Source: Botryllus schlosseri
Lineage: Eukaryota
Direction: 5' to 3'
Assembly (NCBI GenBank): GCA_051294905.1
Contig: CM119371.1
Coordinates: 994,001 to 1,058,000 of the forward strand
DNA length: 64,000 nt
Both the position numbers and the translations under genes were made by a program. The notes below the pieces were generated by a model. It was not told where the DNA came from. It saw only the letters and a list, made by a program, of their open reading frames with translations, and ran no database searches. Position 1 is the first letter of the stretch. Each line of letters opens with the position of its first letter. Positions 1 to 53,471 of this stretch are shown here, one piece after another.

Positions 1-827
1 ATAGTACAAACTTTTTACTTAGCTAGCCAATGTATTTCCTGCCTGTCATTATCAGAAAATAGTTGCCTATGTGTGACGTGGGCGTTCCCAAGTCATGAAA
101 GGTTTAAAACCTTATAGAACTGGATTTCATTCTCCTAGTCAACACATTAATTTCACTTTCTCGGAAATATCAGACATTGAATCGAAATGTCAAAAAAGAC
201 GGGGTTTTGAGTTTGAAATGGGAGAGATTCCTGCCCCAAAAAGTCACCTGCTGTTCGCAGTGAGGGCTCTAAGCGAGCAATGGCTGCACAAACATCGTTC
301 AACAGAATACCGGCATGTCAATTCGCCTAAAGCAACGACATGTGTTTTCTAGTTGTTCGGCAGCTAATTTTTTTTTTTCAAAAGTGCAACTAGAACTAGA
401 ACTACTAAATTTTTAAAATCTGCAACTACGGCTAGAACTAGAACTACTCTATTTTCCAAATCCGCAACTAGAACTAGACTATAACTACTCCAAAAATCGA
501 TAGTTAGTTGTCCATCAACTAACTATATGTTTAGTTTGTACAAGTCCGATATGACTTGGTTCGAGTCATGCGTAATGACTCGAGTCTAAGTCGAGTCAAT
601 ACACAGCTTGGCTCGAGTATAGTCGAGTCATTTCCGTATTTCAAGAAAATGGATCATGTCAAGTCTACTCATCAGAAAATCGCGATTCGAGTAATGACTT
701 GAGTCATTACAACTTTGTCCCAGATATACAAGACCTATTTTGACTATGTGTGGGAGCTGCATTATGGGACATTTGACGACAATGACCATTGATTTTATAA
801 AACAGGATGCACAGATAAAACACTCAC

Positions 828-968
828 GTTGGTCAGGTGGAATTGCCTGAATTCCAGAATTCATATTGTAGTTGATGGTCTTGTGAATTTGATCTCCTGC
901 CACAACGTTGACCGAGCTGTTTATGATCCGTTGATTGATGTTTTCGCCTTCCGCCAAACTTGCAGATC
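828..968 (-). CDS. Internal coding exon (141 bp, phase 1-1): GSASLAEGENINQRIINSSVNVVAGDQIHKTINYNMNSGIQAIPPDQ; paralog of exon 11145-11288
   Basis: Acceptor tctcag at 969-974, donor gtgagt at 822-827, open frame, clear protein similarity to the 11.2-kb exon (GSAxLAxGEN(I/V)N...VNxVAG(D/N)Q). Confidence 0.75.
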
Positions 969-1160
969 CTGAGACACGCGAGAATATTACGTCCGGTATT
1001 CCGATGCATATTCATTAGTAACCACCAAGTTACGATCATGGAAACTTTCCAGAATTTCATATTAATATTAGATTATGCAGCTCCCGAATATTATTATATA
1101 TTTGAAAAATTTAAATAGATGGTTCGTGGTACAGAACCTGAATATAGCTTTTAATTCATA

Positions 1161-1312
1161 TATTGTAGTATAACATTTATTGAACTCAAAGACTTTGAGG
1201 GTGCCTTTTCAAAAGTAAACGGCACACCAAAAGGATTTAAACAGATTTAAAGGTAAAACCAAAAAGGCTAGGTATGACGATACAATCAAAATCACAGACC
1301 ATGAGATTCTCA
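1161..1312 (-). repeat. Dispersed repeat, probably the 3' end of a non-LTR retroelement/SINE; other copies at ~24041-24193 and ~47706-47785
   Basis: Direct similarity among the three copies; minus-strand end has AATAAA and a short AT-rich tail. Confidence 0.5.
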
Positions 1313-2094
1313 AACACAATATTGGTAGTTGATTAAATAGTGAGGACATGCAGATAATTTATATGCTTATTTAAAATGATCCAAACATTGCTTTGATGAT
1401 ATCGCACACGCTTCAGAACAGTGGCGAGATTTCATAGGCTGGTAGACCTCAATAACCAATTTGTCAAAACTATAGAGATGAAAGTCGGTGGTCCCGCTTC
1501 TTAGAACATGATTGAAATTTAAATCTGTGCGCAGCAATCAGTTCATATATTTAGTAATCCCACTTTGGGTTCAGTTCCAGGACATAAAATGTCATCATAA
1601 CCAAATTAGCCCTGATAATACGCATACATAGAACGAATCTACGTAAGACACGCACTGAAATAATTAAAACTGGAGTGACCAATCTGAAATCACACCCGTG
1701 ATCCGAATTACGTCAATCTCGCCCCCCCCTCCTCTACCCTTGATGGTAAAAGATTTCGCGCTAATTTTATCGTCATAGCACAAAACGAAACCATGATGAT
1801 CGCAAACCTAACTGATAGTTTGATGGCATGGAAGATTACGACTGTGTATGAGAGTTTTTTAAATATGAAATTCAGAGTAAATACAGAGCATGAATGGGTT
1901 ATAAATCGAGGTGAGCGCGATTTTTTTAGTTGAGCTCAGCTTTGCGCTCAGCTTACATCAGTGGTTCCCAACGTGGGCGATATCGCCCCCCCCCCCCAGG
2001 GCGCGATTTGGCGGTCTAGGGCGGCGAAAATAACTGAGCTGTACTACAAGTCGGCTGCAACGGAATAGAAATGAAGGAAATGCTGGTCTGGCGT

Positions 2095-2470
2095 CAATCA
2101 ATCAATCGATTTATTAATATTTTCATGATTTTAAAACATCACAAGACTGCGATGCAATGAAAAATGACCATAGTAGTCAACAAACACAATGAACACCCCA
2201 AAACAAACAATATATGTAGCAAGTCTGCGAAGGGTGCTTATAGTTTATAAAATTGATATAAACACTGCATAGACGTCAAATGTAAAACATTTATCATGCG
2301 TAGCCTACGGGATATATTTTGATTGGATTCCTGATGAGGGTGTTGGATATCCTGTATAACTTGTTTTTGACATACTATCTGGCGCAAGTATAGAAACTGG
2401 TGTTCCACTCCCAAGAATAGATCAGTTCAGTCTAGCCGATTCCTCGTTGACATTTTTGGCAAAGCGACCG
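2095..2470 (-). mobile_element. Decayed LINE 3' end with (ATTG)n tail; tail copy on + strand at ~54610-54673
   Basis: caatcaatcaatc...ttattaatattttcat matches the reverse complement of 54610-54673; weak CxxC..EES remnant near 2440-2465. Confidence 0.4.
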
Positions 2471-3065
2471 AATATATTGATTCGGTGTAATTATTATAGC
2501 ATTCAATTGTTCCAGTGAATGTATTAGGGGGCATTTGAAAGTCAGCATGTACTTCACCACTGAGGCATAATATGTCCCGAGATAATGTAGCCGCGGCCCA
2601 AGTCTGCCGAGATTTCCCACTACTTGCTTACTACGTCAAATTTTACTGACTGTATGTTTTAATATACGTGTCTGTATGCGCATTGCGCAGCGTGCGAGAG
2701 TGGAGCTTACGCGTAAGTTCGTTGAAGCGAGAAGACTTGCAATATCGGCATTTACAATGTACTCAAGCCTAATGTCGTTTGTTGTAATCATGGTATTTGT
2801 CGACTACAATGGTCATTTACACCAGGCTGATATTTCTTATTTTTGATTTCGTACCCGCCGACTTGTAGCACGGAAAATTTGGAAGATAATATTCAAACTA
2901 CTCAAACGTGTGAAGTTTCCGTAGATTTTGAACTCATAAATATGCTACTGGTTCAACTGTCTAAAACTACGAGGTATCCTTGTTTTATTTGTGAATGGGA
3001 CAGTAGAAATCATTGAATTAAATGTAAGTGGCCAATGAGGGAGTATCTTGCACCAGGCTCTACAA

Positions 3066-3374
3066 CAGTGGTTCCCAACGTGGGCGATATCGCCCCCCAG
3101 GGGGCGATTTGGTGGTCTCGGGGATAGGGGGGGGCGAAAATGACGGTGGCGATAGGGAGGGAGGGATGACGCGTCTAAACGACTGACCTTTTTCTTTAGT
3201 CAACCCACGGAAATTTAGTTACAAAAGTGTCAAATTAGACATCGACCCGATAAGATGACCTTTTTTTGTTTTTGTTTTTTCAGTCAACCTGCCGGTGATT
3301 ACAGTTGGTGTTGGCGATGATCGGTGTTGAGCTTGAAAAGGGGTCGATGGGTCGAAAAAGGTTTGGAACCACTG
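3066..3374. mobile_element. Non-autonomous hAT (Buster/Charlie-type) MITE; same family at 25273-25617, 59480-59875 and a fragment at 1959-2035
   Basis: TIR CAGTGGTTCC(C/A)AAC; exact 8-bp TSD CTCTACAA (3058-3065, 3375-3382). Confidence 0.9.
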
Positions 3375-4416
3375 CTCTACAACGTTGCAGAGCCTGCTCT
3401 GATCGACATATGTAACGTTGTATTTCCCCAATGATAGCCTATATATCAAACCATCTCATGAAAAAGTTTTCAAATGCTGTTTTCAAAAAGAGTTCACGTT
3501 GTTAATGCATCCACGAAAAGTTTCCTCTCTCGAGTTAATACAATAGAGTCTGTAAGAGTATATTTGTTGTACCTCAGAACACTCACCAAAACCCCATATT
3601 TCTTATTAGGAATGCGTATTTGGAAAAATACTACATGACTATCTTTCATGCAAGTTGCATCCAAATTTCCTAGAAACACCAAGTATCGTGAGGGCGTCAG
3701 TGCCTCGCCAGCCATGAACCTCACCGGACGTCACTCGTGTACCATAATGTTTTAAGTGTGTAGTACTAGGATTAGGTTAGCCCGGTGCTTTTCAACCTGT
3801 GTGACGGTTCGCACTTGTGCGAATGAAAAAAATGTAGTGCGAATGACGAAGGTGGTGCGAATGGTGCAAATGAAAATCCGGATCAAGTGCGAATGAAAAT
3901 CGTCATTAATTGTAAACTTTTTTGACGTGGAATAATTCAAATAAACCTAATTTAGGAAATTTAGGATCATTGTAACTTTCGTAGTTGCAACGCAATTGTA
4001 AACACTTAATACGACACACCATTAATCGTAGCTCTTACAAGCCGTAGGGAATTAACATTCCCGCACTATAATTATTACGTAACCAAAAGCCTGATTTGGA
4101 AGCTGGTGTATAGTGGCAGTATGGAGATCTCTACAATCTAGATCTGCTTTCTTTCGCTAAACAATTATTAGATTTTCGTAATAACTGTTCGATTAGCGTG
4201 AGGCACGAGAATAGTAGTAAATAACATCATTACAGACACACATTTGCAAGTTTACTGTAACCCAAATTTTGACCCCTTCAAAGACCATAAAGGGTATAAT
4301 TTTGGGTCGACATGGTGCCAGAGCTATCGGTTAATTGTAATATTTATTGAATTTATTGCAAAAAATCCTGCGATCGTTTTTATATATCCAAGGTCACTGT
4401 GTTCGACACTCTAGCC

Positions 4417-6291
4417 CAGTGGTTCTTAACCTTTTTTCCTCCAGCGCCCCCTTTCAAAGATTATCGTGCTCCAGCGCCCCCCAACCTCATATTGTAAGGA
4501 ATGTAATAAAGACAATGAGTAAGAGGGAGGGCCGTAACAGCACTTCGTCAACTCCCCAAAAAACGATTGCCTTGCGCACCCATACCTTGATAAACCAAAA
4601 TTCTGAAGGCTTCGATCCCAAGAACCCCGTAGCGTGATTTCGATGGTCAGCAAAGTTTGTGTGGCCTGGTCGCCCTAGGTGTCAAAATTTTCTATAATGC
4701 ATGAATGAATAGGTGGTAATTACATATATACGTCGCTATGAACATTTTATCCTCTCAGCCCACGTAATCAGATTTACCAGTAGCGCTGAGTGACCTGTTG
4801 TATTGGAAAATAAAGGTCACGTAATTGATAATTAAACATATTCGGGCGTGCCCGTAGGTACAATTAATTCGTTACCAGGGCCGTAACAGCACTTCGTCAG
4901 CCCCCCCCCCAAAAAAAGGGTGTTCTAGGGCCTCCCATAGGGTGATAAACCAAACTTCCTAGTGGCTTCGCCCCCAGACCCCCCTTTGGCTATCCGCTAT
5001 TTGCTGATACTGGTCATCTACATTGGGTGTCCTTTTACTGAGCCAGCTATTCTCGCCCAGACGCGCGAAGCGCGAAAAATTTCACTAATTATTTATTGAA
5101 TTGGTCAATATGATCGGAAATTGCATATATGTTGATATAAATTTTTATCCTCTCTCTGCTAACGTAAACAGATTTACCGGTAGAGCTGAGTGATGTGTGA
5201 TTGAAAAGGTAGGACCCCTCAATAATTATTATGCATCTTCGGGCGTATACCCGTTGGCAGGAACGAAACGACGCTTCGTCTGGCCCCCGGAAAAAACTTG
5301 GGTCTTGGGCTCCCATATGGTGATAAACCGACAGCCCCCCTCACGTTGTTCGCTTTTGCCACGAAAGCAGCTGTACTGTTTAGCGAGCCAGTGCAAAGCG
5401 CGAAAATTTTCGATAATTCATGATAAAATCGGTCAATAAGATCGGGAATTGCATATATATTGCTATTAATTTCTTGTTCTCTCTGCTCACGTTACCAGAT
5501 TTACCGGTGAGAGCTGAGTGAGGTGAAATGTTCCCTCTAAGCTGCGCACGTGCGCAGTGCTGACACGGTCTCTGCGCACAGAAAATCTACGTTGCGCACA
5601 ACAAATCCGATGTTATGAACTTTTTTTATTCGCTACGCACTGTTGTTCAAGGGTCTGCGCAGTGAGTTGGTGAGTGTGCGCAGACTCGTCAAAACGTAGA
5701 GGGGACATTGTGAGGTGTCTTGGAAACTGTAGGGCCCGTAACTAATAATTAAACATATTCTGGCGGGCGGACCCGTTGGTATGACTTCGTTGCATGATGT
5801 TATTTCGTGACCTCCTGTCTGCTATATCAAAAAATATAGAATCGCCCAACAGGGATATCGCCCAACAGGGATATCTAGTTCTATATATCCCTTCGCCCAA
5901 TCGTACTAAACTAAAAGACGCACATGATTTCAAATTGGTATTTCTTCACTGGCATATAATTTTTCCCAGCCAGATGGAATTCGTCTTCTGAGGTTCAGAT
6001 TGCCAAGACAGGAACATTTGGTGCCAGTCATTTAGGCGCCCATGGACAATTAAACCTATATGTCTTTTGTAGGCTATATATAACGAAGTTTTCGATGTTA
6101 ATTCGCTCTGAATACTCATTAAGGATATGTCCTACTACCACATCATCTACTGCGAAGCCATTTTTCTCCAGCGCCCCCCATATCGCCCCCCTGAGCCCAG
6201 CGCCCCCCATATCGCCCCCAGAGCGTTTCCGCCCCCTTCAAAATCGCCAGCGCCCCTTGGGGGGCGCTGGAGGCAAGGTTAAGAACCACTG
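4417..6291. mobile_element. Nested non-autonomous hAT element containing tandem MITE-derived units and a further small insertion (~5527-5710)
   Basis: TIR CAGTGGTTCTTAACC; exact TSD CTCTAGCC (4409-4416, 6292-6299); AGCGCCCCC subterminal repeats. Confidence 0.9.
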
Positions 6292-6299
6292 CTCTAGCC

Positions 6300-7133
6300 A
6301 ATAAGCGAGACACGCAGTAAATATGGCTTTATCATGAGAATTCATGATAAGATTTGTCCGACTGTTTTTTTCTGGAAAACATGGTCGAAGACCGTTGGGA
6401 TGAACTGGTGTACTGTAGACTGTAGAGGTGCGCAGCGAGCGAGTTCAGGCCTATGAAACTCACTCATTTCGAGGCCAACCCCTTCTGCGTCGGGGTCACA
6501 AGAAGACGTAAAGTTTTGGAAAACAAAACGCTGATAAAATACGGTGCCAAAAACATAAGCAGTGACAAAACCTCGGTCTAAAAATGACCGATGCTGGATG
6601 GCCAAACCGTTCGAAATGGATTGGACATGATCCGTTGTCGGCACGGAATAGTCCCGTTCTTGCAATCTGTGTATAGGCAGTAGTACAACCGCGATACGCA
6701 GAGGAATTTGATCCGCTGTAATTTGAAATCGCGTGCGTCAGTCATGTTTTGTAGAGCTGTGTTGGGTAGAATTGTGATGTGCGCGTTCTGTATGTCGTAC
6801 ATGCCCGTAAAATCGTAGCATACAGCTGTACTAATAAAAATATATTCATTTTGATGGGTGAGGTTCGGGTCGCGAGATGCCACAAAACTCTGATTTTGGT
6901 GGTAGTCTAACTGCTTTACCGTTATTAAACTGTTATGAATTCTCAAGTTAGATTGAGCTAAAGAGTAGAACACACAGTACCGTGAGGTATTTGGTCTTCT
7001 CGTAATCTTGTGAGATAGAAGTTGGAGCAACGTATCATCAGGTAGCGAGCTCTAATGTGTTTACTCTCCTTGATCGTTTTGCACCTTGACCTTATGTACC
7101 AAAGACATAAAGCAAAAGCCTCAACACAAACAT
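6300..7133 (-). pseudogene. Intronless decayed ORF inside hAT 3783-7573, possible F-box-like N-terminus
   Basis: Overlapping ORFs 6578-7030 and 6342-6665 joinable by frameshift; N-terminal GAKRSRRVNTLE/SLPDDTLLQLLSH...FYSLAQSNLRI; reading appears to continue across the nested insertion to AATAAA near 4345-4360. Confidence 0.35.
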
Positions 7134-7586
7134 GTTGGTTTTTCATCCTTTTGGCGAACTGGAGCCTCGCGGGACCTTTGTGTCAGCTCTCAAAAACGAT
7201 TTCTGCCAGCATGCATTTTTCACTCGCGAAAAATACGCTGTATTTTGGATAGGAGTGCAGAACAGATTTTGAGGCCAGGTCATTCAAGCACTAGTAGACG
7301 TTCTTGTACAAATTTTCAGCAACATTGTTTGGCCGAGAAGGGTTTTAGTCAAATAATTTAAAGCGAAACGAGCGTAAAAAGTTCCCTTTTTAATGAGACA
7401 CTTGACAGCTTAAGCTACATATTTGCCAATTAGTTGCATATCGGAAAGAACATGCTGTTAAGTAGGCTTATCTTCATCTTGTTTTTGTATAACAGTTTTG
7501 GATTAGTTTGTGCGAATAAAATTTATTTCACAAAAAAAGTGCGAATGGAGCTCAAAAAGGTTGAAAAGCACTTGGTTAGCCTATAT

Positions 7587-9226
7587 CAGTGGTTCTCAAC
7601 ATTTTTGACCTCGCGACACACTTTGAAAACGAAAAATAGTTCGCGGCACACTAGCACAGTGGTTCTGAACTCTTTTGGCTTACGGCACAGGCAAACTACC
7701 AGAATGCGTATAGCAGCAACCATAGTCTTACAGAGGTGGTCACTGACGAAATATTTCTACCTTTTAGGAGCACTCAAGCAGGCTTTTCTCTGCTTGAGTT
7801 TTCTTGTATCTCAGCGGACATCTCACAAATACGTATGCGAATGGTATCATTAGACATGGGAATCGTTTACAATTCTTCCCAAACATTTCTTTACAATTTT
7901 ATTGCAGGCCGGAAGAATAACTTTCTCCACTTCCGTGCGAAGTTTTGAATTATCCGCTTACCACATAACTGGCCTGCTGAGATCTCGTTTAAACTTTAGG
8001 TTGAGCTTAATTTCATGAGATTGGCTTGACAATAAAGTCTGTCCACTAACGCATTGTCGATGTAATTAACCGTCGCATCGAAGAGTCCAGTCGCGATCGC
8101 CACTAACCGATACAGATGCGTAGAAGTGTATTATGCCAAACGCATTTCCACGCAAATCGTGTAATGGCACCTGTGGGGATAGTAGGCTATATACCTCAAT
8201 AGCGTTGCTGGCAGCCACCCGCAGTTGAATTGCAGTTCCAACAAACCGGAATAATAAACCTCCGCGGCGGAGAAATTTGTAACTGATTATAATTTTATTA
8301 ACTTTATTGTCAATTCTCGAATTTGCCGCCTGCAATATAACTCTGCGCCCTGAGCCTACATTTTACCTCCAGTGCTGGCACGCTACCTACCAATCGCATA
8401 GTGAATGGCTATGTTGGTAATTCTAATTTGTAAACATGAACATCACTTCCAAATGAGTTCATTTCTCGATGGTGAGAATGCCTTCCTAGGTGTTGGAGGT
8501 TTATGTAGGCTGCTACTCGTCATCCGACCGCAAAAGCAGTGTCTTACAAAAAGTGGGAGGCCGTGCTATAAGTTGGCATCTCAGGAATCAAAATAAGTAA
8601 TATCGGTATGGTGTAAAATGATCATCGATTACAAAGACATGGCAAGAATACGACTACAAATAGAAACAGAAAAAGATCATCAACCTGCGTCATGTCCCTG
8701 TTCTGCATCCGATTCTGATGGGGGTGACAAGTATAAGGTGAACACCTTCAGCCACACCTCAATATCACGGTACAATGGCCCGAGTTTAGTTATCACCGTT
8801 CTAAATGCTACTATGCGTGGGCAAACTAGCGTATCACCCTCATTGACGGTGGAGGCCCCACTTTGATTCATGGCAGTGCAGTAGCAAGTTACGAAGAATC
8901 GCAGATTTATTAGATTCTCCGCCCCTATACGTTGCTGTGCTCAGAGCGTCTTTACAGTATGAAGCCCAGAGAAATACCCAATCCATGACCTAATGGGGAT
9001 GTCAGATTGAGATACGGTCGCCTCGACATCCTTATATCTGTTCACTGCATCGTATTGTGCATCGCGTGTCTTGATCGGGTAAATTCAACAGAAAAACCGA
9101 CAATGACACACTCAAAATTTGGATTTTTCTTATACTTCGACATAATTTACCACATTTGCTCGTGGCACACCGGAGCAGTCCAATTGGCACACTAGTGTGC
9201 CGCGGCACACGGGTTGAGAACCACTG
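7587..9226. mobile_element. Decayed hAT (Buster/Charlie) element
   Basis: TIR CAGTGGTTCTCAAC; exact TSD GCCTATAT (7579-7586, 9227-9234); GCGGCACAC subterminal repeats; frameshifted IPFA.TYLCE dimerization-domain remnant on minus strand near 7820-7850. Confidence 0.85.
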
Positions 9227-9987
9227 GCCTATATGGATTGGGTATACTGGGGATTTCCAGATCCACAGCACAATGGACTCGCCATCACAATCCATATTAC
9301 AGTGGATCACCTCGAACCTTTGTCAAAAGTCATGTGTGAACAAGTATGTGATCTTATGACGTCACGTGATGTCATATTGCTGATTCCAACCCTACATTTC
9401 AGTATTCACGATTCCCAGTGACAACTCAGGCCAGATTATGCCATAATGCTTTAGTAAGCTACGTGCCGACAGCAATCCCGACAATGTATTCGGCATCTAT
9501 TTCTCTAATCACGTCACAATTTTTCGCAAAAATCGAATTACATTTTTTTCACAAACGGCTATGATAAATGTCTTGTGTTTCTAAGAACATCGTATAGCTC
9601 TCACCGAAATAGCATTAAAAAGCTGCAACTTGCAAAAGATCTATTAATTCAAGCTTCGCATGCTCAAATAAGACAAGCAGCGTGATTAGTGCAGGTTTTA
9701 CGGACCATATGTGGCGCACACGACGAATATCATGTATATTGGGATCGAATTAGTTCTAGCATGACGTCACGGTTTTCAATTATGACGTAGAAGACATTGA
9801 CATGAATGGCTCTTTGGGAGTTTGAACGGGAAAATAGGGTCAATATGGCTCCCCGAAAAAAAAGAGGTTTCCGACCCCTGCTTTAAACATTTGGCCACAT
9901 GATCGAGCAATCGCGGTACTTCATCCGGGCTATACTGATGGCTTCCATTGCGTTTAATCGAAGTATCAACAAGATGATGCCCATAAC

Positions 9988-11027
9988 CAGGCCGTGTTAT
10001 TTTTGGCATATGCCAAAACTGCCAAAAAATAACTTATTTTTGGCATTTTTCGATTTTTGTTTTTGGCAGTTTTGGCATCGTCCTCTAAATAGATAGTTTC
10101 CGCCTCGAATTAGTCACAAAAACGTTGTATTTGGGCTAGTTTGTCAAAAGACACCACAAAATGGGCAGCATCCACGTATAATCAGTGCCAACAAACAATA
10201 AGAATAAGAAAAGAACTAATGATTTCATAGGTTAATAATATCAAACGAAACCACAAAATTCGCCAGTGCCATCGATCTCATCGCGGAAAGAATTTCCTTC
10301 CCGATCCTTTTCCGGGAGTTTCCTGTGTTGTCTCTCAACACATTCTATTTAGTAGCCCGACTATCATTTCTCCTACAGTCTACCGATATATTTTCGGAGG
10401 ACTTTTGTCACTTCAGGTGGCTTTAATAATACCAAATCGCATGGAAGAGTTCTGGCTTGTTTAAGAACTTTGACGCAACAAGACTGTCTGGCAAAACGAT
10501 ACTATACAGCTCAGAAATAGCCAGACAGTTTGTTGCGTCACAATATTCAACTCGATCACAATGCAAAAATCGTGGTTGATTTTGGGGGATCCAGTTCCGT
10601 GAGAAGAATATAATTTATATTTCAATAATCAGTACTGCGGCAGCTTCTCATTGATACCCGTTTTATAAAATTTAGCGCTCGACAAACCGGTTAAAAATGG
10701 TCGTAAAATTGCCTTTGGACAAATGGAAAGTATGACGTAAACCAAACGTAGTCAGCCGTTCAATCTCGCTGTGCCCACACCATTTAGAACGCCATGCTTT
10801 CACTCCTAATGGGTGGGCTGGACCGAGAATACGAAACCTGCCTTTCACTAACGCTCTTCTCGCTTGTAACGCGGTCCTATTAACACAACACCATGAACGA
10901 AATACACTATTTGGCCGGCCGTGTTATTTTTGGCATATGCCAAGAATTGCTTATTTTTGGCATTTTCAAATTTTTATTTTCAAATTTTGGCATTTGGCTT
11001 CGGAAATGCCAAAAATAACACGGCCTG
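9988..11027. mobile_element. Non-autonomous hAT-like element
   Basis: TIR CAGGCCGTGTTATTTTTGGCAT; exact TSD CCCATAAC (9980-9987, 11028-11035); TTTTGGCA repeats. Confidence 0.88.
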
Positions 11028-11144
11028 CCCATAACACTAACAAAATTATCATGTCTACTTTTTCACACATTTTGCCAGTTCTTGAAAAAGTGCCTCGAGG
11101 TGGACCAGTCTCTCCCATATAGGATGAAAAACCATTCAACTTAC

Positions 11145-11288
11145 CATGACTCGATGGAGTAGCTTCTCCTTCAGAACTGGTGAAGTTGAACACATTTTTT
11201 ACGATCGTCTGATTTCCGGCCACAAGGTTTACCGGGCTCTTGCTGAACGTCAGATTCACATTTTCACCTTGAGCCAAAGTTGCAGAAC
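11145..11288 (-). CDS. Coding exon 2 (144 bp, phase 1-1): GSATLAQGENVNLTFSKSPVNLVAGNQTIVKNVFNFTSSEGEATPSSH
   Basis: Acceptor tttttag, donor gtaagt, open frame, in phase with exon 11483-11558 across a 194-bp intron. Confidence 0.78.
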
Positions 11289-11482
11289 CTAAAAAACAAT
11301 TGAGTAATGTATTACGTGCCCAGTTACATACATGTTCTTTTCATAAAATAAAGTGGGATTCTATTAGGTTCTTCGATACATTTCTGTATATTCTTTACAC
11401 AGCGAGCGAAATGTGCTGAATTTAAATAACTATACAACTGTTTAATAAGTGGTCTGCGCTAAAAACAACAGACATTACTCAC

Positions 11483-11558
11483 CCCTTGCTTGCGGTGATA
11501 ATGAAGTAGGCATTTCTTCAGCGACACCTGAATCGTGATCTTGACCCCCTTCTGCCAT
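11483..11558 (-). CDS. First coding exon: MAEGGQDHDSGVAEEMPTSLSPQAR(G); gene probably continues past position 1
   Basis: gccATGG start context at 11558, donor gtgagt, phase 1 matches next exon; upstream acceptor tttccag near 11603. Confidence 0.72.
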
Positions 11559-13115
11559 GGCATTAATAGCTTGGTACTGATCAGCTAGCGTAAGTAACAA
11601 TACTGGAAATATATATATATATTAACTGGCCTACATTTCGTAAAGAAGGTTTATGTACATCATGTTGTGACTATCAGTTCCAACTGATATGATGCATCTG
11701 ATAAATATGTTATAGATCAGCAGTTCTCAGCCGCCGAAATTGGACCGGTGTCAGTCGGTTTCAAGTTTCTTGCCGGTCTGCCAAATATATTACAATATCA
11801 CATATCAATTGAAAACGCACGAGGATGGTTCCTTGTCTAGAGAAATGAAACGTCAAATTTGCAATTGATCTAGAATTTAGGAATACGGAATCCGTGATGC
11901 TGTAATAGTGTGCATGGCAGTGGCCGCTCGTGACAATATCATGTGGTGGGGCAAGGGGTGTATATGCGATGTTTGTTGTCTAAATGACGTCACACTGGAT
12001 TATTCCGGCGTGAAAATGTGACTTCATGGTGGTCGCACACAGTTTGTATGGGGTATAGCCATTAGGCATGGTTAACTAGACTTACGTATTTCAAATTATT
12101 GGGAAGAAAATATGAATTACAGTAGTTATTACCTGCATATTTTAACGTTTGTACCAGTAGCCTAATGCGCGCGGGGTGATTTCATAGTTGCAAAATGTTC
12201 CTGATGAGATAATCTCGAATACCCAGAATGACACCGCTGAGAAGATATCTTTTCACATCCCGATTCTAAGAAAGGCCCCGGTGCGTGTTAATGTGCTGAA
12301 ACCACGCTCGGATTGTGCAGATAAAATCGGGGTGGAGAATATGGTATTGAAAAAGATAGTTACTGCAGCAAAGTTGATAGAAAGCGATTTTTTAACTATA
12401 GGAATTTTGAAAGTTCACTAGTGGTTACTACTTCGGAAAAAATGTATTGGAACATAAACTCGAGCAAAGCCATGCCGACCATCGGATTATATTGATCAAG
12501 ACACTGTTTGCAGTAGACCACATGCTTCAGATCACGATAACTTATTTCGTTTCAAGTAGAGGAACTGCCTCTGGTACCAGCACTGTAAACGTGTATAACA
12601 AGGCGTCATTATCCTCGCTCATACGTCAGTCATTCATTTTTATCGAAATATGTTAAGAAAAAAAGATAATAGTCCTAGTACCTTTTCCTCCCGCGTACGA
12701 TTAGATCAATGGACAATTTCTAGGCTGATAAGGACCGAGTCTATTTGCCTCTAATTATTGCTCTGAAAAGGAAACTGCACGAACGGCGTATGGATGAAAG
12801 AATCGCGCAATAATCTGTTAGAATGCAATCATTTTGCAACAGTTGACTCATGACACATTACTTTACGGGTACCGAGAGAAAGTTTTTTAACGAAGTTTTG
12901 CAAGAAACGTTGCCGGGTTCAAGCATGTGAATTATGTGGCATATAAGTTGGGAGAGTCGAGGTTACATTATTATATTAAATTTGGTAGAATTTTCTAATT
13001 TGAGAAGGTTGTTAAATAATGACCAGGAAAGTGTCCAATGGACGATTCGCATATGGAGAGAACTGCTACGAAACCCGACCGCCCTATGTTATCTTGTACA
13101 TATGAAATTGTATTT

Positions 13116-25768: not shown

Positions 25769-27096
25769 CAGTGTTGAGATGACTCGAGTCATGACTCGAC
25801 TCGAGTCAGACTCGAGTCACTGTTTTCGTATGACTTGACTTGACTCGAGTCACTTTGTGAAAATGAGTTGACTTGACTCGACGCTTCAAAAATGCAGATT
25901 GACTCGAAGCAAAATTTACGAGTAAATTTCAAGTCATCAAGTAATCGATGTTGACTAGATCGCCGTATCTTGTATAAGTTCGGATTGTTAAACGATCACT
26001 CAACGATTGTGAGTTTTACCTAGCCTCCATTGTTGCATAACTAATGAATTGATCGTTAACGCAGAGATCTGAGCTTATAGCTTACGTCGTCGTAAACTTA
26101 CTCACCTCAACCAGCCTTCTTGCGTGCTTTAAATCGAACGAATATCATCCATACGTTTATAATTGTATATCATGGATAGATATGTTGGTAGGGTATCGCT
26201 CCATATCATTTTATGAAATTTTCTGATACTTCATATGCTATCCTATATTTCGGCTGATAATCATAGATCAGGGGTGGGCACTGGGCAAAGCTGCTTCACA
26301 CACGAGCCGCATTTCAAAAATCACTACACAAAAATGTATATATACTGATATATTTCGTTATAAGGAATTGTAGGGTATCGAACGAAGTTCATTATTGTGT
26401 GGTATAAGACGATGCGTCTCCCCCTGGGCTGCAAGGTGTTTGAAATCGGACTGATAGTGCGGAGCTCGGTAATCATAATACTTCGAAAATATGTCGATTT
26501 CGGGTGAATCTTGGCTATTATGCTTTTGGTGTTTGGTTTCGTAATGACGTTTCAATTCTTGCTTTGTGATTATTGGTCGAATCTTGGCGGAAAAGGCACA
26601 GTTGCTTACGTTCATTATCACTGAATGTACATTGCACACTCATTGTAGAGCCGCAATCAAAGAATCAAAGAGCAGATTGCGGCTCGCGAGTCGCAGCTTT
26701 CCCACCACTGTTATAGACTGAGGCTATTCCGCTGTACTTGCATAGTTTGACAGTTCTACTTGTGCATGAGCGATAGAACGCCTTCTTGCGTGTATAATCC
26801 CTCATTCGTTCCTTGATTCAGTATAAATGGGGATTCCATCTGTATTTAAATCAGTTAGCAAAATGCAACGAACTTGAATCATATATCGTACTTAGAAAGT
26901 TCAACTTGACTCGACTAGTGACTTGACTTGTGACTTGACTTGACTCGACTCGACTCGAGTCACCTCCAAAAATCATGTGACTTGACTTGACTCGAGTCAC
27001 CTTTGAAATTCGAGTGACTTGACTCGACTCAAGTCAAAATCTGCAATGACTCGAGATGACTCGTGACTCGAAGGTAGTGACTTGATCCCAACACTG
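25769..27096. mobile_element. GACTCGAGTC-family hAT MITE with nested hAT derivative 26269-26710
   Basis: Exact TSD ATAATTAC; nested element has TSD TCATAGAT/TTATAGAC and a LKRHYETKH BED-finger-type remnant on the minus strand. Confidence 0.9.
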
Positions 27097-27942
27097 ATAA
27101 TTACTCGATTTGTTATGAAACGAGCGAAGTATTGTGTTTGTGCCATACAGGAATTGCAACCCTGTGTTATTGCTTACATGCCATTTAAGGGCCAAAAAGA
27201 GCGATTGCCCGGGTGACCAGGTGTCCTCATTAGAGAGATGTTTCAATGTGCACTGGGCCGGTTTACAAAACTGCTGCAAGCAAAAGTACAGGACAGTGCT
27301 TTTCAACTTGATCAGCCGGCGTGGCGGTAAAATTTCCAAAAATCAACGTCAACAAGGAATGTGATCACAAAAGTATGCGATTCAAAACAAAGAATCTGAA
27401 CATTAATTTAGTGAGAAATTCGGCGCTATCCTTTTGATATCACACACTTGGACTAGATAATTCTAGTTGTCAAATTTACTAATTAGAAGAAAATACCAGT
27501 AATCGAATTTTAATTCTAATCAAATTTCTGTTTTTTTGGAAAATGCTACAAGAGAAGTGTATCGTGTGAAACGAGTCAAGGTTGGTGTGCAGACATTTGT
27601 CATTGTCATGCTGATCAGAATGAGGTCTGATCTGATATAAAGCGAACACCATTCCATGTCCAAGTTTTCGTGAATTGAGTGGTTCTAATTTCAATCTTAT
27701 TTGGACAAAAATGTGTAACTATAACTCTATAACTAATCTAAGTTGGAAAAGAATGTCTAGTTATTATTCTAGTCTGATTTGTAGCTACCATTCTAATTCC
27801 AATGAAATTTGGAAAAGCTAAAAATGATCTAGTTGTCCAAATCTGGCTTAGAAAATACCCGGGGCTATCGTGTAAAACCCGGTAAGGAACCACTGCTCTA
27901 AGGTAATTACTATGTATGATGATAGTTGTGATTCCGACATAC

Positions 27943-50812: not shown

Positions 50813-52129
50813 TCAATGTACTATTTTTAGGTGATACACGAACTCCTTTTGTTGACAGAGTTTTGGTTGGTGTATTTTGATAAAAGTTGATTCCAAGGCA
50901 CACAAATGGAATTGTGAACGGCCTCGACCTACGATTCGAAATCGGTCGTCTCGATAATTATTCGCACAAATCGGATTATCCAACAGATGTTTGCCGATGG
51001 CAGAATTAATTGCCTTTGATCGATCAGCATCAATCTTAAGTGGATGAGTTAAGGGTGAGCTTTTCACATCGCGTGACGCACGTGTTCTGATAAATCTGGG
51101 GACATGTTGGTTAATGCGGTCCTGCAGACGTCTTGACGTTCTTCCCACGTAGCCACAATCACAGTGGCACCTATATTCGTACACTACATTACTTTGTTGA
51201 AGTGCAGGAAGCACGTCTTTGCGTGTTGAAGGGAGCAGTTGTGTTGTTGTAAAAATCACATTGGTTTTGACTGTATCGTAACATTTACCGACAGCAGAAA
51301 TCAATTGTTTTTCAAAGCGGGTGGAAATGGGGCCAATCCAAGGTAGATGGATATAAACATCTTTTATTGTTCGTGCGGTGGGCTCTGTTCGTTTTTCTGC
51401 GTTGAATTGCGTTAATTTCCTCTCCATGCCGCGGCTGATGACGTGTTCAGGGTAACCGTTATCAAGTAAGATTTTTCGGATGTAGTCAAGTTCTAAACTC
51501 AGTTTGTTACCCGAACATATCATCAACGCTCTATGCACGAGTGTGCCTATGAGGTTAATTTTTCTGCGCCGAGGACTAAATGAATTCCAGCGAAGGTATT
51601 GGCCTGTGAATGTCGGTTTTCTGAAAACAGACGTTTCAAATTTGTTGGTATTGCGCTTTTCAACTAATACGTCCAGAAATGATAATGAGTTATTGCGTTC
51701 TTTTTCTATTGTGAATTGCAAGGCCGGGTGAAGCGAGTTTAAGCGAATGAGAAATTGGTCACACTCCGATTCATTCCTGAAAATGACAAATGTATCATCT
51801 ACGTATCGGCGGTACAATAGTGGTTTGGCGGACTCACGCTGGGACAGAAGCTCGACCTCGTAATACCCTACGAAAATGTTGGCCGAAATAGGTCCCAGGG
51901 GACTTCCCATGGCTAAGCCGTCTATTTGGCGAAACATGACCTCGTTAAAGCTAAATTCCACGCAGCAAGTTGCCGCTTGTAAAAGTTCAACAAAGACGTT
52001 ACGCGGGATTGATGGTGGCGGTAACTTACCACCGTACAGCGCGTTGGCACAAATATCAATAGTCTCATGCAGCGGAACGTTCGTAAAAAGACTAGAGATA
52101 TCAAATGAGCTCAGAAACACGTCTGGATT
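50813..52129 (-). CDS. 5'-truncated PLE reverse transcriptase + GIY-YIG endonuclease (left arm)
   Basis: Mirror of the + copy; differs by ISANIF vs ILANIF. Confidence 0.9.
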   Translation of the reverse strand, partial: NPDVFLSSFDISSLFTNVPLHETIDICANALYGGKLPPPSIPRNVFVELLQAATCCVEFSFNEVMFRQIDGLAMGSPLGPISANIFVGYYEVELLSQRESAKPLLYRRYVDDTFVIFRNESECDQFLIRLNSLHPALQFTIEKERNNSLSFLDVLVEKRNTNKFETSVFRKPTFTGQYLRWNSFSPRRRKINLIGTLVHRALMICSGNKLSLELDYIRKILLDNGYPEHVISRGMERKLTQFNAEKRTEPTARTIKDVYIHLPWIGPISTRFEKQLISAVGKCYDTVKTNVIFTTTQLLPSTRKDVLPALQQSNVVYEYRCHCDCGYVGRTSRRLQDRINQHVPRFIRTRASRDVKSSPLTHPLKIDADRSKAINSAIGKHLLDNPICANNYRDDRFRIVGRGRSQFHLCALESTFIKIHQPKLCQQKEFVYHLKIVH

Positions 52130-52154
52130 TGCCTGGATTTGCCTGGATTTGCCG

Positions 52155-53471
52155 AATCCAGACGTGTTTCTGAGCTCATTTGATATCTCTAGTCTTTTTA
52201 CGAACGTTCCGCTGCATGAGACTATTGATATTTGTGCCAACGCGCTGTACGGTGGTAAGTTACCGCCACCATCAATCCCGCGTAACGTCTTTGTTGAACT
52301 TTTACAAGCGGCAACTTGCTGCGTGGAATTTAGCTTTAACGAGGTCATGTTTCGCCAAATAGACGGCTTAGCCATGGGAAGTCCCCTGGGACCTATTTTG
52401 GCCAACATTTTCGTAGGGTATTACGAGGTCGAGCTTCTGTCCCAGCGTGAGTCCGCCAAACCACTATTGTACCGCCGATACGTAGATGATACATTTGTCA
52501 TTTTCAGGAATGAATCGGAGTGTGACCAATTTCTCATTCGCTTAAACTCGCTTCACCCGGCCTTGCAATTCACAATAGAAAAAGAACGCAATAACTCATT
52601 ATCATTTCTGGACGTATTAGTTGAAAAGCGCAATACCAACAAATTTGAAACGTCTGTTTTCAGAAAACCGACATTCACAGGCCAATACCTTCGCTGGAAT
52701 TCATTTAGTCCTCGGCGCAGAAAAATTAACCTCATAGGCACACTCGTGCATAGAGCGTTGATGATATGTTCGGGTAACAAACTGAGTTTAGAACTTGACT
52801 ACATCCGAAAAATCTTACTTGATAACGGTTACCCTGAACACGTCATCAGCCGCGGCATGGAGAGGAAATTAACGCAATTCAACGCAGAAAAACGAACAGA
52901 GCCCACCGCACGAACAATAAAAGATGTTTATATCCATCTACCTTGGATTGGCCCCATTTCCACCCGCTTTGAAAAACAATTGATTTCTGCTGTCGGTAAA
53001 TGTTACGATACAGTCAAAACCAATGTGATTTTTACAACAACACAACTGCTCCCTTCAACACGCAAAGACGTGCTTCCTGCACTTCAACAAAGTAATGTAG
53101 TGTACGAATATAGGTGCCACTGTGATTGTGGCTACGTGGGAAGAACGTCAAGACGTCTGCAGGACCGCATTAACCAACATGTCCCCAGATTTATCAGAAC
53201 ACGTGCGTCACGCGATGTGAAAAGCTCACCCTTAACTCATCCACTTAAGATTGATGCTGATCGATCAAAGGCAATTAATTCTGCCATCGGCAAACATCTG
53301 TTGGATAATCCGATTTGTGCGAATAATTATCGAGACGACCGATTTCGAATCGTAGGTCGAGGCCGTTCACAATTCCATTTGTGTGCCTTGGAATCAACTT
53401 TTATCAAAATACACCAACCAAAACTCTGTCAACAAAAGGAGTTCGTGTATCACCTAAAAATAGTACATTGA
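52155..53471 (+). CDS. 5'-truncated PLE reverse transcriptase + GIY-YIG endonuclease (right arm), probably Penelope/Poseidon type
   Basis: RT motifs SFDISSLFTNVP, GLAMGSPLGP, RYVDDTF, FLDV, thumb FRKPTFTGQYL; endonuclease NVVYEYRCHCDCGYVGRT..RL..R..QH...SAIGKH...LE; no Cys-rich linker between RT and endonuclease. Confidence 0.93.
   Translation, partial: NPDVFLSSFDISSLFTNVPLHETIDICANALYGGKLPPPSIPRNVFVELLQAATCCVEFSFNEVMFRQIDGLAMGSPLGPILANIFVGYYEVELLSQRESAKPLLYRRYVDDTFVIFRNESECDQFLIRLNSLHPALQFTIEKERNNSLSFLDVLVEKRNTNKFETSVFRKPTFTGQYLRWNSFSPRRRKINLIGTLVHRALMICSGNKLSLELDYIRKILLDNGYPEHVISRGMERKLTQFNAEKRTEPTARTIKDVYIHLPWIGPISTRFEKQLISAVGKCYDTVKTNVIFTTTQLLPSTRKDVLPALQQSNVVYEYRCHCDCGYVGRTSRRLQDRINQHVPRFIRTRASRDVKSSPLTHPLKIDADRSKAINSAIGKHLLDNPICANNYRDDRFRIVGRGRSQFHLCALESTFIKIHQPKLCQQKEFVYHLKIVH

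Follow-up and report, generated by a model that had tools for sequence, protein, structure and literature searches.

What do two related short exons contribute to the gene that they seem to open, and do they belong to one gene or to two? The question is raised by a locus of Botryllus schlosseri (genome of 495 Mb in 219 contigs), at which a start exon and two motif exons lie on the minus strand of the 64,000-nucleotide stretch C1:994001-1058000 (contig CM119371.1), hereafter called the window. The preliminary description of this DNA took the motif exons for duplicated modules encoding a RHIM-like amyloid-signalling motif at the N-terminus of an immune receptor or adaptor and left it open whether they make up a single gene or two tandem paralogs. 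We find that more than 100 genes for NACHT-LRR receptors (NLRs), a large family specific to this lineage, begin with the motif as their N-terminal module. The explanation that we consider best, and on balance probable, is that both exons are copies of this module and that the locus represents the recombinant two-module 5' end of an NLR gene, with a mode of action of the module that we infer. Whether this particular copy is active is uncertain.

Exon 1, the start exon (11483..11558), begins with the ATG at 11558, comprises 25 codons plus one base (MAEGGQDHDSGVAEEMPTSLSPQAR, i.e. MAEGGQD...SPQAR) and ends in phase 1 at a GTGAGT donor. Exon 2 (11145..11288; 144 nt, acceptor ttttag, donor GTAAGT) carries the motif module of type A and exon 3 (828..968; 141 nt, acceptor tctcag, donor GTGAGT) that of type B; they are referred to as exon A and exon B in the following. 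Both are open and symmetric (phase 1-1), exons 1, 2 and 3 can be read in frame, and the two motif exons encode exactly the peptides quoted in the preliminary description, so that its statement of two intact symmetric exons following MAEGG stands. The peptides of exons A and B are 40% identical in our alignment of motif exons (A3), and tblastn aligns them with 42% identity over 45 residues (E 3.5e-5). A DNA search of the genome with exon A gives 29 matches, none of which is exon B; the likeness of the two thus exists at the protein level only, in agreement with the conservation of protein in the face of divergent DNA that had been claimed for them.

Searching the genome by tblastn with the exon A peptide yielded 124 places at E<=10, of which 56 reach E<1e-3, while the exon B peptide led to at least 88 places at E<=0.01 (best 150 of 163 candidates scored). 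Merging both lists resulted in a set of at least 102 distinct genomic places with a motif exon. From the window and 74 further loci, 75 motif exons were excised by searching each for an open frame in phase 1-1 bounded by AG and GT or GC. Such an exon was obtained in every case, with a length of 114-159 nt (mode 147), a GTRAG donor in 62 and a pyrimidine-rich acceptor in 74 of the 75 loci. Given this multitude of relatives in the same genome, exons A and B resemble each other far more than expected by chance. The A3 alignment has the consensus SATLAEGENVNQxFxNSSVNVVAGDQINxxKxVxNIxxxExEAxPxxQ. When residues are counted over the 73 distinct rows of this alignment, the highest conservation is seen for L4 (100%), A5 (96%), N9 (95%), A2 (94%), G7 (93%) and Q26 (90%), followed by S1, V19 and V22 (89% each), N20 (88%), E8 (86%), S17 (84%) and G24 (82%). 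V-N-V-V-A-G-D/N-Q forms the conserved core of the module and its second half is variable and contains insertions and deletions. The ratio of nonsynonymous to synonymous differences (pN/pS, uncorrected proportions) amounts to 0.31 among six type-A copies, to 0.50 among 11 type-B copies and to 0.44 for all pairs across the first 27 codons. The motif has been retained in genes whose NACHT exons share just 30-77% of their residues, even in those with a NACHT identity of no more than 30-50%. As the module occupies exactly one phase 1-1 exon, its addition, loss or skipping leaves the reading frame intact. A short form of the motif exon of about 100 nt, still in phase 1-1, occurs at eight places on C3 (L095-L102). 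It stops a few residues past the conserved VNVVAGDQ and is part of a more divergent group of NLRs on that chromosome.

The gene context in which the motif resides is best seen in a paralog on C9 (L018) that was read base by base. Here, a start exon (MAEEGQD...) is followed by one motif exon and, 1.8 kb further on, by a large phase-1 exon for which Pfam reports NACHT (E 5.5e-14) and NOD2_WH. Large exons with NACHT and NOD2_WH are likewise present in L016, L023 and L014 (E 5.5e-14 to 2.9e-16 for the four paralogs) and there give way to LRR-type frames. To place the motif exons relative to such exons on the scale of the genome, a 220-residue piece of the L018 NACHT exon was used to collect at least 154 matches (best 150 of 207 candidates scored), and the 102 motif-exon places were paired with 148 NACHT places on condition that the NACHT exon resides downstream on the same strand. 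The distance is up to 15 kb for 49 of the motif exons, 15-50 kb for 26 and 50-100 kb for four, whereas for 23 none is listed within 100 kb. The latter class is inflated because the NACHT lists are incomplete, and an additional Pfam NACHT search (best 94 of 224 candidates scored) located a NACHT exon near three of the 23. Divergent NACHT exons were found 5 and 7 kb downstream of two C3 short-form exons, at C3:6033682 and C3:7175304, and for a third one that initially lacked a listed partner the nearest is 65 kb away. In total, 75 of the 102 motif exons are followed by a NACHT exon on the same strand within 50 kb. Together with the start-motif-NACHT-LRR order of the paralogs this bears out, at the level of the family, the proposal that places the motif at the N-terminal end of an immune receptor.

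Among the matches listed, six NACHT exons, including that of the window, are preceded by two motif exons. The other five are located at C1:8521044, C1:11755620, C1:16406635, C1:39574264 and C10:5038656, the motif exons in the last case being 34 kb apart. Weaker pairs of motif exons are present at C2:26859365/26859874 and C2:36040995/36031546.

How did the locus in the window acquire two modules of different type? Exon A has five other copies on the same chromosome that share 89-100% of their peptide residues with it, and exons 1 and A including their introns are 90-96% identical to five other C1 copies (L002-L006). The exon 1 peptide recurs upstream of the motif exon with 96-100% identity in L002 and L004-L006 and with 57-76% identity in L007, L008, L018, L020 and L022. 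According to blastn with L002-L006 and with L012, the DNA below paralog L002, homology of this type extends down to window position 2029. The closest relatives of exon B (73-93% identical) are single motif exons of another NLR subfamily, and its flanks (549-1312) match, at 80-83% identity, the DNA around the motif exon in members L032 and L033 of that subfamily. The junction between DNA of type-B and type-A origin must accordingly be sought within 1313..2028. Because B-type homology ends at 1312 and A-type DNA begins at 2029, the locus is a hybrid in which the start exon, the motif exon and the upper intron of type A are fused to a startless type-B motif exon.

This arrangement also bears on the notion of two separate tandem genes with exons A and B each heading a transcript of their own. 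Single-module genes are indeed what the subfamilies consist of elsewhere (L004 and L018 for the A-like, L032 and L033 for the B type), and 10 kb lie between the two exons in the window. In B-type paralogs, however, the motif exon is preceded at a distance of 1.3-1.7 kb by a start exon belonging to the same gene (MAEGGEERISGV...), and blastn with L032 and L033 found no counterpart of it in the window. Lacking a start exon, exon B cannot head a gene; if it is used, it is used together with exons 1 and 2. In addition, the sequence changes to A-type intron DNA above exon B, and one NACHT exon only is present downstream of both motif exons. A pair of tandem genes is therefore very improbable in our view, and the choice between one gene and two paralogs that had been left open is largely settled in that exon B does not constitute a separate gene at this locus.

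The intron between exons 2 and 3 of the hybrid has been enlarged by two insertions that are peculiar to the window copy when compared with its paralogs. The first one, about 5.4 kb of repeat DNA, spans 3783..9226, with L002 and L003 joining position 3782 straight to 9227. The second one, about 1 kb in length with inverted ends (9990-10012 and 11006-11028), spans 9988..11025, with the same two paralogs joining 9981-9987 to 11026. Elsewhere on the chromosome, long plus-strand frames follow one another within the intron of the type-A paralog at C1:580170 (C1:558654-578653; L012 and L013) and by eye resemble a Maverick/Polinton-type element with polymerase-, packaging-ATPase-, integrase- and protease-like frames.

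If the window contains the 5' end of an NLR gene, its continuation has to be sought beyond the lower border, because neither in the window nor in C1:964001-994000 did tblastn detect a match to the NACHT and first LRR exon of the family. The nearest NACHT exon is situated 42 kb downstream of exon B on the minus strand (C1:952374-953942; positions 8374-9942 of L025). It is an intact open frame of 522 codons with an acceptor in phase 1 (ctgcag|GC) and matches Pfam NACHT (9.6e-17) and NOD2_WH, its best relatives of solved structure being NLRP7, NLRP2 and NOD2. An LRR-type exon follows (L025 7427-7771) that is 55% identical to the corresponding exon of a paralog and for which Pfam gave no LRR family. 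The NACHT exon is the only one in the 90 kb below the window, and in the same 90 kb tblastn detected no further motif exon. When read as one gene, start exon, exon A, exon B, NACHT and LRR exons are all in frame. The support that had been drawn from CARD-like and LRR-like exons in the neighbourhood has fallen away: among the 411 open frames of at least 50 amino acids in the window, Pfam reported CARD or any LRR family for none.

The 42 kb that would form the intron between exon B and the NACHT exon contain plus-strand frames of up to 545 codons (C1:974001-994000; L009 and L010), which are probably retroelement genes that inflate this putative intron. Retroelements were also noted within the window. 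Two near-identical frames of 535 codons, 50813-52420 on the minus and 51864-53471 on the plus strand, overlap by about 550 bases and match Pfam RVT_1 (E 8.8e-8 and 2.3e-8), i.e. they are head-to-head retroelement copies. These two reverse-transcriptase frames provided the only Pfam matches above threshold in the window. Below threshold, 27000-27173 on the minus strand resembles dDENN (E 8.6e-4, 19.8 bits, cut-off 26.8), a possible trace of another gene, and 12256-12414, also on the minus strand, resembles the hAT dimerisation region (E 0.0018), a possible trace of a hAT transposon.

Is this copy a working gene? Several observations weigh against a functional two-module receptor gene. What connects exons 1, A and B with the L025 NACHT exon is position and phase, and a gap of 42 kb falls into the upper part of the distance range of the family. 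The L025 NACHT exon is 48% identical to that of L018, pointing at a third subfamily, whereas the NACHT exons adjoining type-A and type-B motif exons are 70-77% identical to it. For two of the five close type-A copies, no NACHT exon is listed over 65 and 114 kb, respectively, which means that orphan 5' ends exist. Four bulk RNA-seq runs from the same species (X7, X9, X11 and X12), of each of which 6-13% was read and aligned to window positions 1-12000, gave a depth of 0 over 11201-11600, comprising exon 1 and most of exon 2, in all four cases, and a splice joint was not found at any of the predicted sites. Over 801-1200, the region of exon B, depth was 0-0.98. Finally, the mechanism of the module, be it partner, oligomer or fibril, is something that we infer.

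Nearly all of the reads that did align are partial matches to repeats (611 of 613 in X7, for example), and this is also true for those inside the insertion at 3783-9226. In three of the four runs, depth peaks 15-29 fold at 10001-10400, within the insertion at 9988-11025. These reads exhibit fixed differences from the window, from which it follows that other copies of the element are transcribed elsewhere in the genome.

Taken together, these findings lend some weight to the view that the locus is a dead relic, that is, two remnants of NLR gene 5' ends in a tandem array that is being rearranged; they would look intact only on account of their young age, and nothing would be made from them. In addition to the lack of reads on 11201-11600, the missing splice joints, the distant NACHT exon of another subfamily and the orphan type-A copies elsewhere, the hybrid nature of the locus and the approximately 6.4 kb of repeat insertions in its intron fit this view, and introns that are still 90-96% identical among the copies leave little time for decay. 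On the other hand, all three exons are open and furnished with canonical splice sites, changes among close copies are biased towards synonymous sites (pN/pS 0.31 and 0.50), and the downstream NACHT exon is intact over 522 codons, has a phase-1 acceptor and is not preceded by any other motif exon. RNA sampling was shallow, and since 6-13% of each run was read, the blank is weak evidence against expression. A relic is therefore a serious possibility, to which we nevertheless give rather less than an even chance, and we continue to favor the recombinant two-module 5' end of an NLR gene.

What kind of module is it then that precedes the NACHT domain in this family? The kinship with RHIM that had been proposed for it did not survive. 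The RHIM tetrad (I/V)Q(I/V/L/C)G is absent from all 75 motif exons and so is the core of the fungal PP motif. At their own thresholds, none of the Pfam families matches any of the 75 exons. When matches are reported up to E<=10, a setting at which the HMMER filters drop most matches above about 0.1, neither RHIM nor HET-s nor another amyloid-motif family appears in any of them. The sub-threshold matches obtained belong to 15 unrelated families. EAD10 is the commonest, with three of the 75 exons, a best E of 0.0098 and 16.4 bits compared to a cut-off of 24.1, and was treated as a chance match. A profile built from the 75 exons found nothing better than E 0.92 in the PDB, and no RHIM or HET-s chain. 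Judged by sequence, the RHIM label fails and should be dropped.

AlphaFold2, provided with exon A and the 75-row alignment, returned a mean predicted local distance difference test score (pLDDT) of 58.5, values below 50 for residues 29-47 and no secondary structure. As modelled, at this low confidence, the module is non-globular, and the monomer model is uninformative as to a cross-beta fold. The disordered flanks ascribed to the motif in the preliminary description are supported by the same values, if indirectly. A complex prediction for four copies of exon A amounted to 'no answer' (score 0.01) and is used neither for nor against any interpretation.

Searches beyond the genome added little that resembles the module. 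Among 1.84 billion representative proteins, the profile matched 16 at E<=1e-3, and no annotated full-length NLR was among these. Thirteen are short frames of 40-124 amino acids that run through the exon into intron-like flanks and thus constitute unspliced calls on related DNA. The other three are long proteins consisting of many short, rung-like repeats, such as P0010 with 9 matching stretches. A word-indexed protein search with exon A found nothing, a kind of blank that is weak evidence, and with the 75-exon profile it found one open frame of 99 residues from an assembly. The same search with the NACHT exon led to one protein, 27% identical, with the families PYD, FISNA, NACHT, LRR and SPRY. 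None of the titles found in the literature concerned a motif of this kind in NLRs of animals.

These results have to be considered when it comes to amyloid signalling in the strict sense. On activation, the N-terminal module would then turn into a cross-beta structure (beta-arch or beta-solenoid) and template the same fold in an effector bearing a related motif. Fungal HET-s/NWD2, the bacterial BASS pairs and mammalian RHIM would be the parallels, and two modules in one receptor would then act like the two rungs of HET-s. Several features of the module are of the expected kind. It takes the extreme N-terminal position in NLRs, directly before the NACHT exon, and PMC12261475 places such amyloid motifs at the N-termini of NLRs and the C-termini of effectors. 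Its length would fit, as would its composition, with 13.6% N and 10.8% V along with S, A, I, G and Q, conserved G, N and Q residues and stretches in which hydrophobic and polar residues alternate. An autonomous fold is not predicted by AlphaFold2, and the only long proteins matched by the profile among 1.84 billion are those with rung-like repeats. Against this stand the negative searches for the RHIM tetrad, the PP core, Pfam RHIM and HET-s and for RHIM or HET-s chains in the PDB. Furthermore, the best conserved part, SATLAEGEN, is small and acidic and thus unlike an amyloid core, and the C-terminal half has suffered many indels. A carrier of the motif other than NLR genes was not found among the 102 motif-exon places, with the proviso that the NACHT lists are incomplete, and four copies on C8 that reside next to NHL-propeller genes look decayed. 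All in all, we consider strict amyloid signalling an unlikely explanation, clearly less probable than a relic.

The C8 copies deserve a description of their own. In C8:3863738-4016207 (L020, L021 and L034), four tandem units are present, each of which consists of a start exon, a motif exon and, on the same strand, a gene for a six-blade NHL propeller with introns of about 53 nt; the four represent one tandemly duplicated unit. The NHL-propeller genes were considered as partners of the four motif exons, the four best NHL matches lying 4-8 kb downstream of these, and rejected. L020 has lost the donor of its start exon, and in L034 an R takes the place of the conserved glycine. Direct splicing of the motif exon to the NHL gene is out of frame, and a model with a linker exon in L020 lacks the splice sites in L034. 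The motif exons adjacent to the NHL genes are most likely relic 5' ends.

Within the two-module NLR reading that we prefer, the module, about 47 residues long, takes the place of the CARD, PYD or death domain found in other NLRs of animals, and it would act as a non-globular, beta-prone peptide. Roughly 115 residues separate it from the P-loop (alignment A4). Oligomerisation via NACHT may bring the modules of several receptors together, and the clustered modules could then bind a common downstream partner by strand-to-strand contacts, either homotypic or heterotypic. Amyloid-like templating would be one possible form of such contacts.

A comparison with established systems helps to delimit what is ordinary and what is peculiar about this family. 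With NACHT-LRR proteins of the vertebrate type (NLRP, NOD2, NLRC), it shares Pfam NACHT, the NOD2 winged helix and LRR-type exons that follow, and NLRP7, NLRP2 and NOD2 are the closest solved chains to its NACHT exon. In contrast to them, it has no CARD, PYD or death fold, in place of which 25 codons and one or two 47-residue motif exons occur that match no Pfam family. The N-terminal module matches nothing described in the libraries searched, and the NACHT-LRR body is of the ordinary vertebrate type. According to PMC11508797, an N-terminal domain is lacking in the NLRs of ascidians.

With the NLR-associated amyloid motifs that occur in fungi, bacteria and archaea (HET-s/HRAM, PP, sigma, BASS), the module has in common that it is short, rich in N, Q, G and V, non-globular, N-terminal and combined with an NLR-type NTPase. 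It differs in that none of the 75 exons matches them in Pfam or contains the PP core, a comparison made without BASS profiles, and in that no effector with a matching motif was found for the family, again on incomplete NACHT lists. According to PMC12261475, such motifs work in receptor-effector pairs and have so far been described together with NLRs in fungi, bacteria and archaea, not in animals. RHIM, as present in RIPK1, RIPK3, ZBP1 and TRIF, is also an immune motif of animals, of similar size and with V/I, N/Q and a central G. It is set apart by the tetrad that is absent from 75 of 75 exons, by the lack of a RHIM match in Pfam or the PDB and by its carriers, since the module resides in an NLR and not in a kinase or adaptor. 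The cRHIM of fly IMD and PGRP-LC offers a further comparison to the module. Teleost NLR-C genes, as described for zebrafish, contain N-terminal peptide repeats in variable number, one exon each. They resemble the Botryllus genes in that an expanded NLR family has short peptide modules at the N-terminus, with a single exon for each.

The most far-reaching interpretation would be that a chordate invertebrate has swapped the death-fold domain of more than 100 NLRs for a short self-associating beta motif that signals by amyloid-like templating. This would constitute the first NLR-linked amyloid motif in animals, one with no sequence kinship to RHIM, and exon shuffling among tandem paralogs would determine whether a receptor has one module or two, a process of which the present locus would be an example. 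As a whole, we consider this interpretation doubtful, even more so than strict amyloid signalling taken by itself. How NLRs devoid of CARD, PYD and death domains relay their signal is not understood for most invertebrates. The short N-terminal peptide of this family is kept more strictly than the NACHT domain, and this points at a common downstream step. If cross-beta templating is true, the module links the amyloid-NLR systems of fungi and bacteria to the NLRs of animals; if it is false, the module represents a new type of effector module in NLRs. The window itself illustrates how, thanks to the symmetry of the exon, recombination between neighboring paralogs can equip a receptor with a second module.

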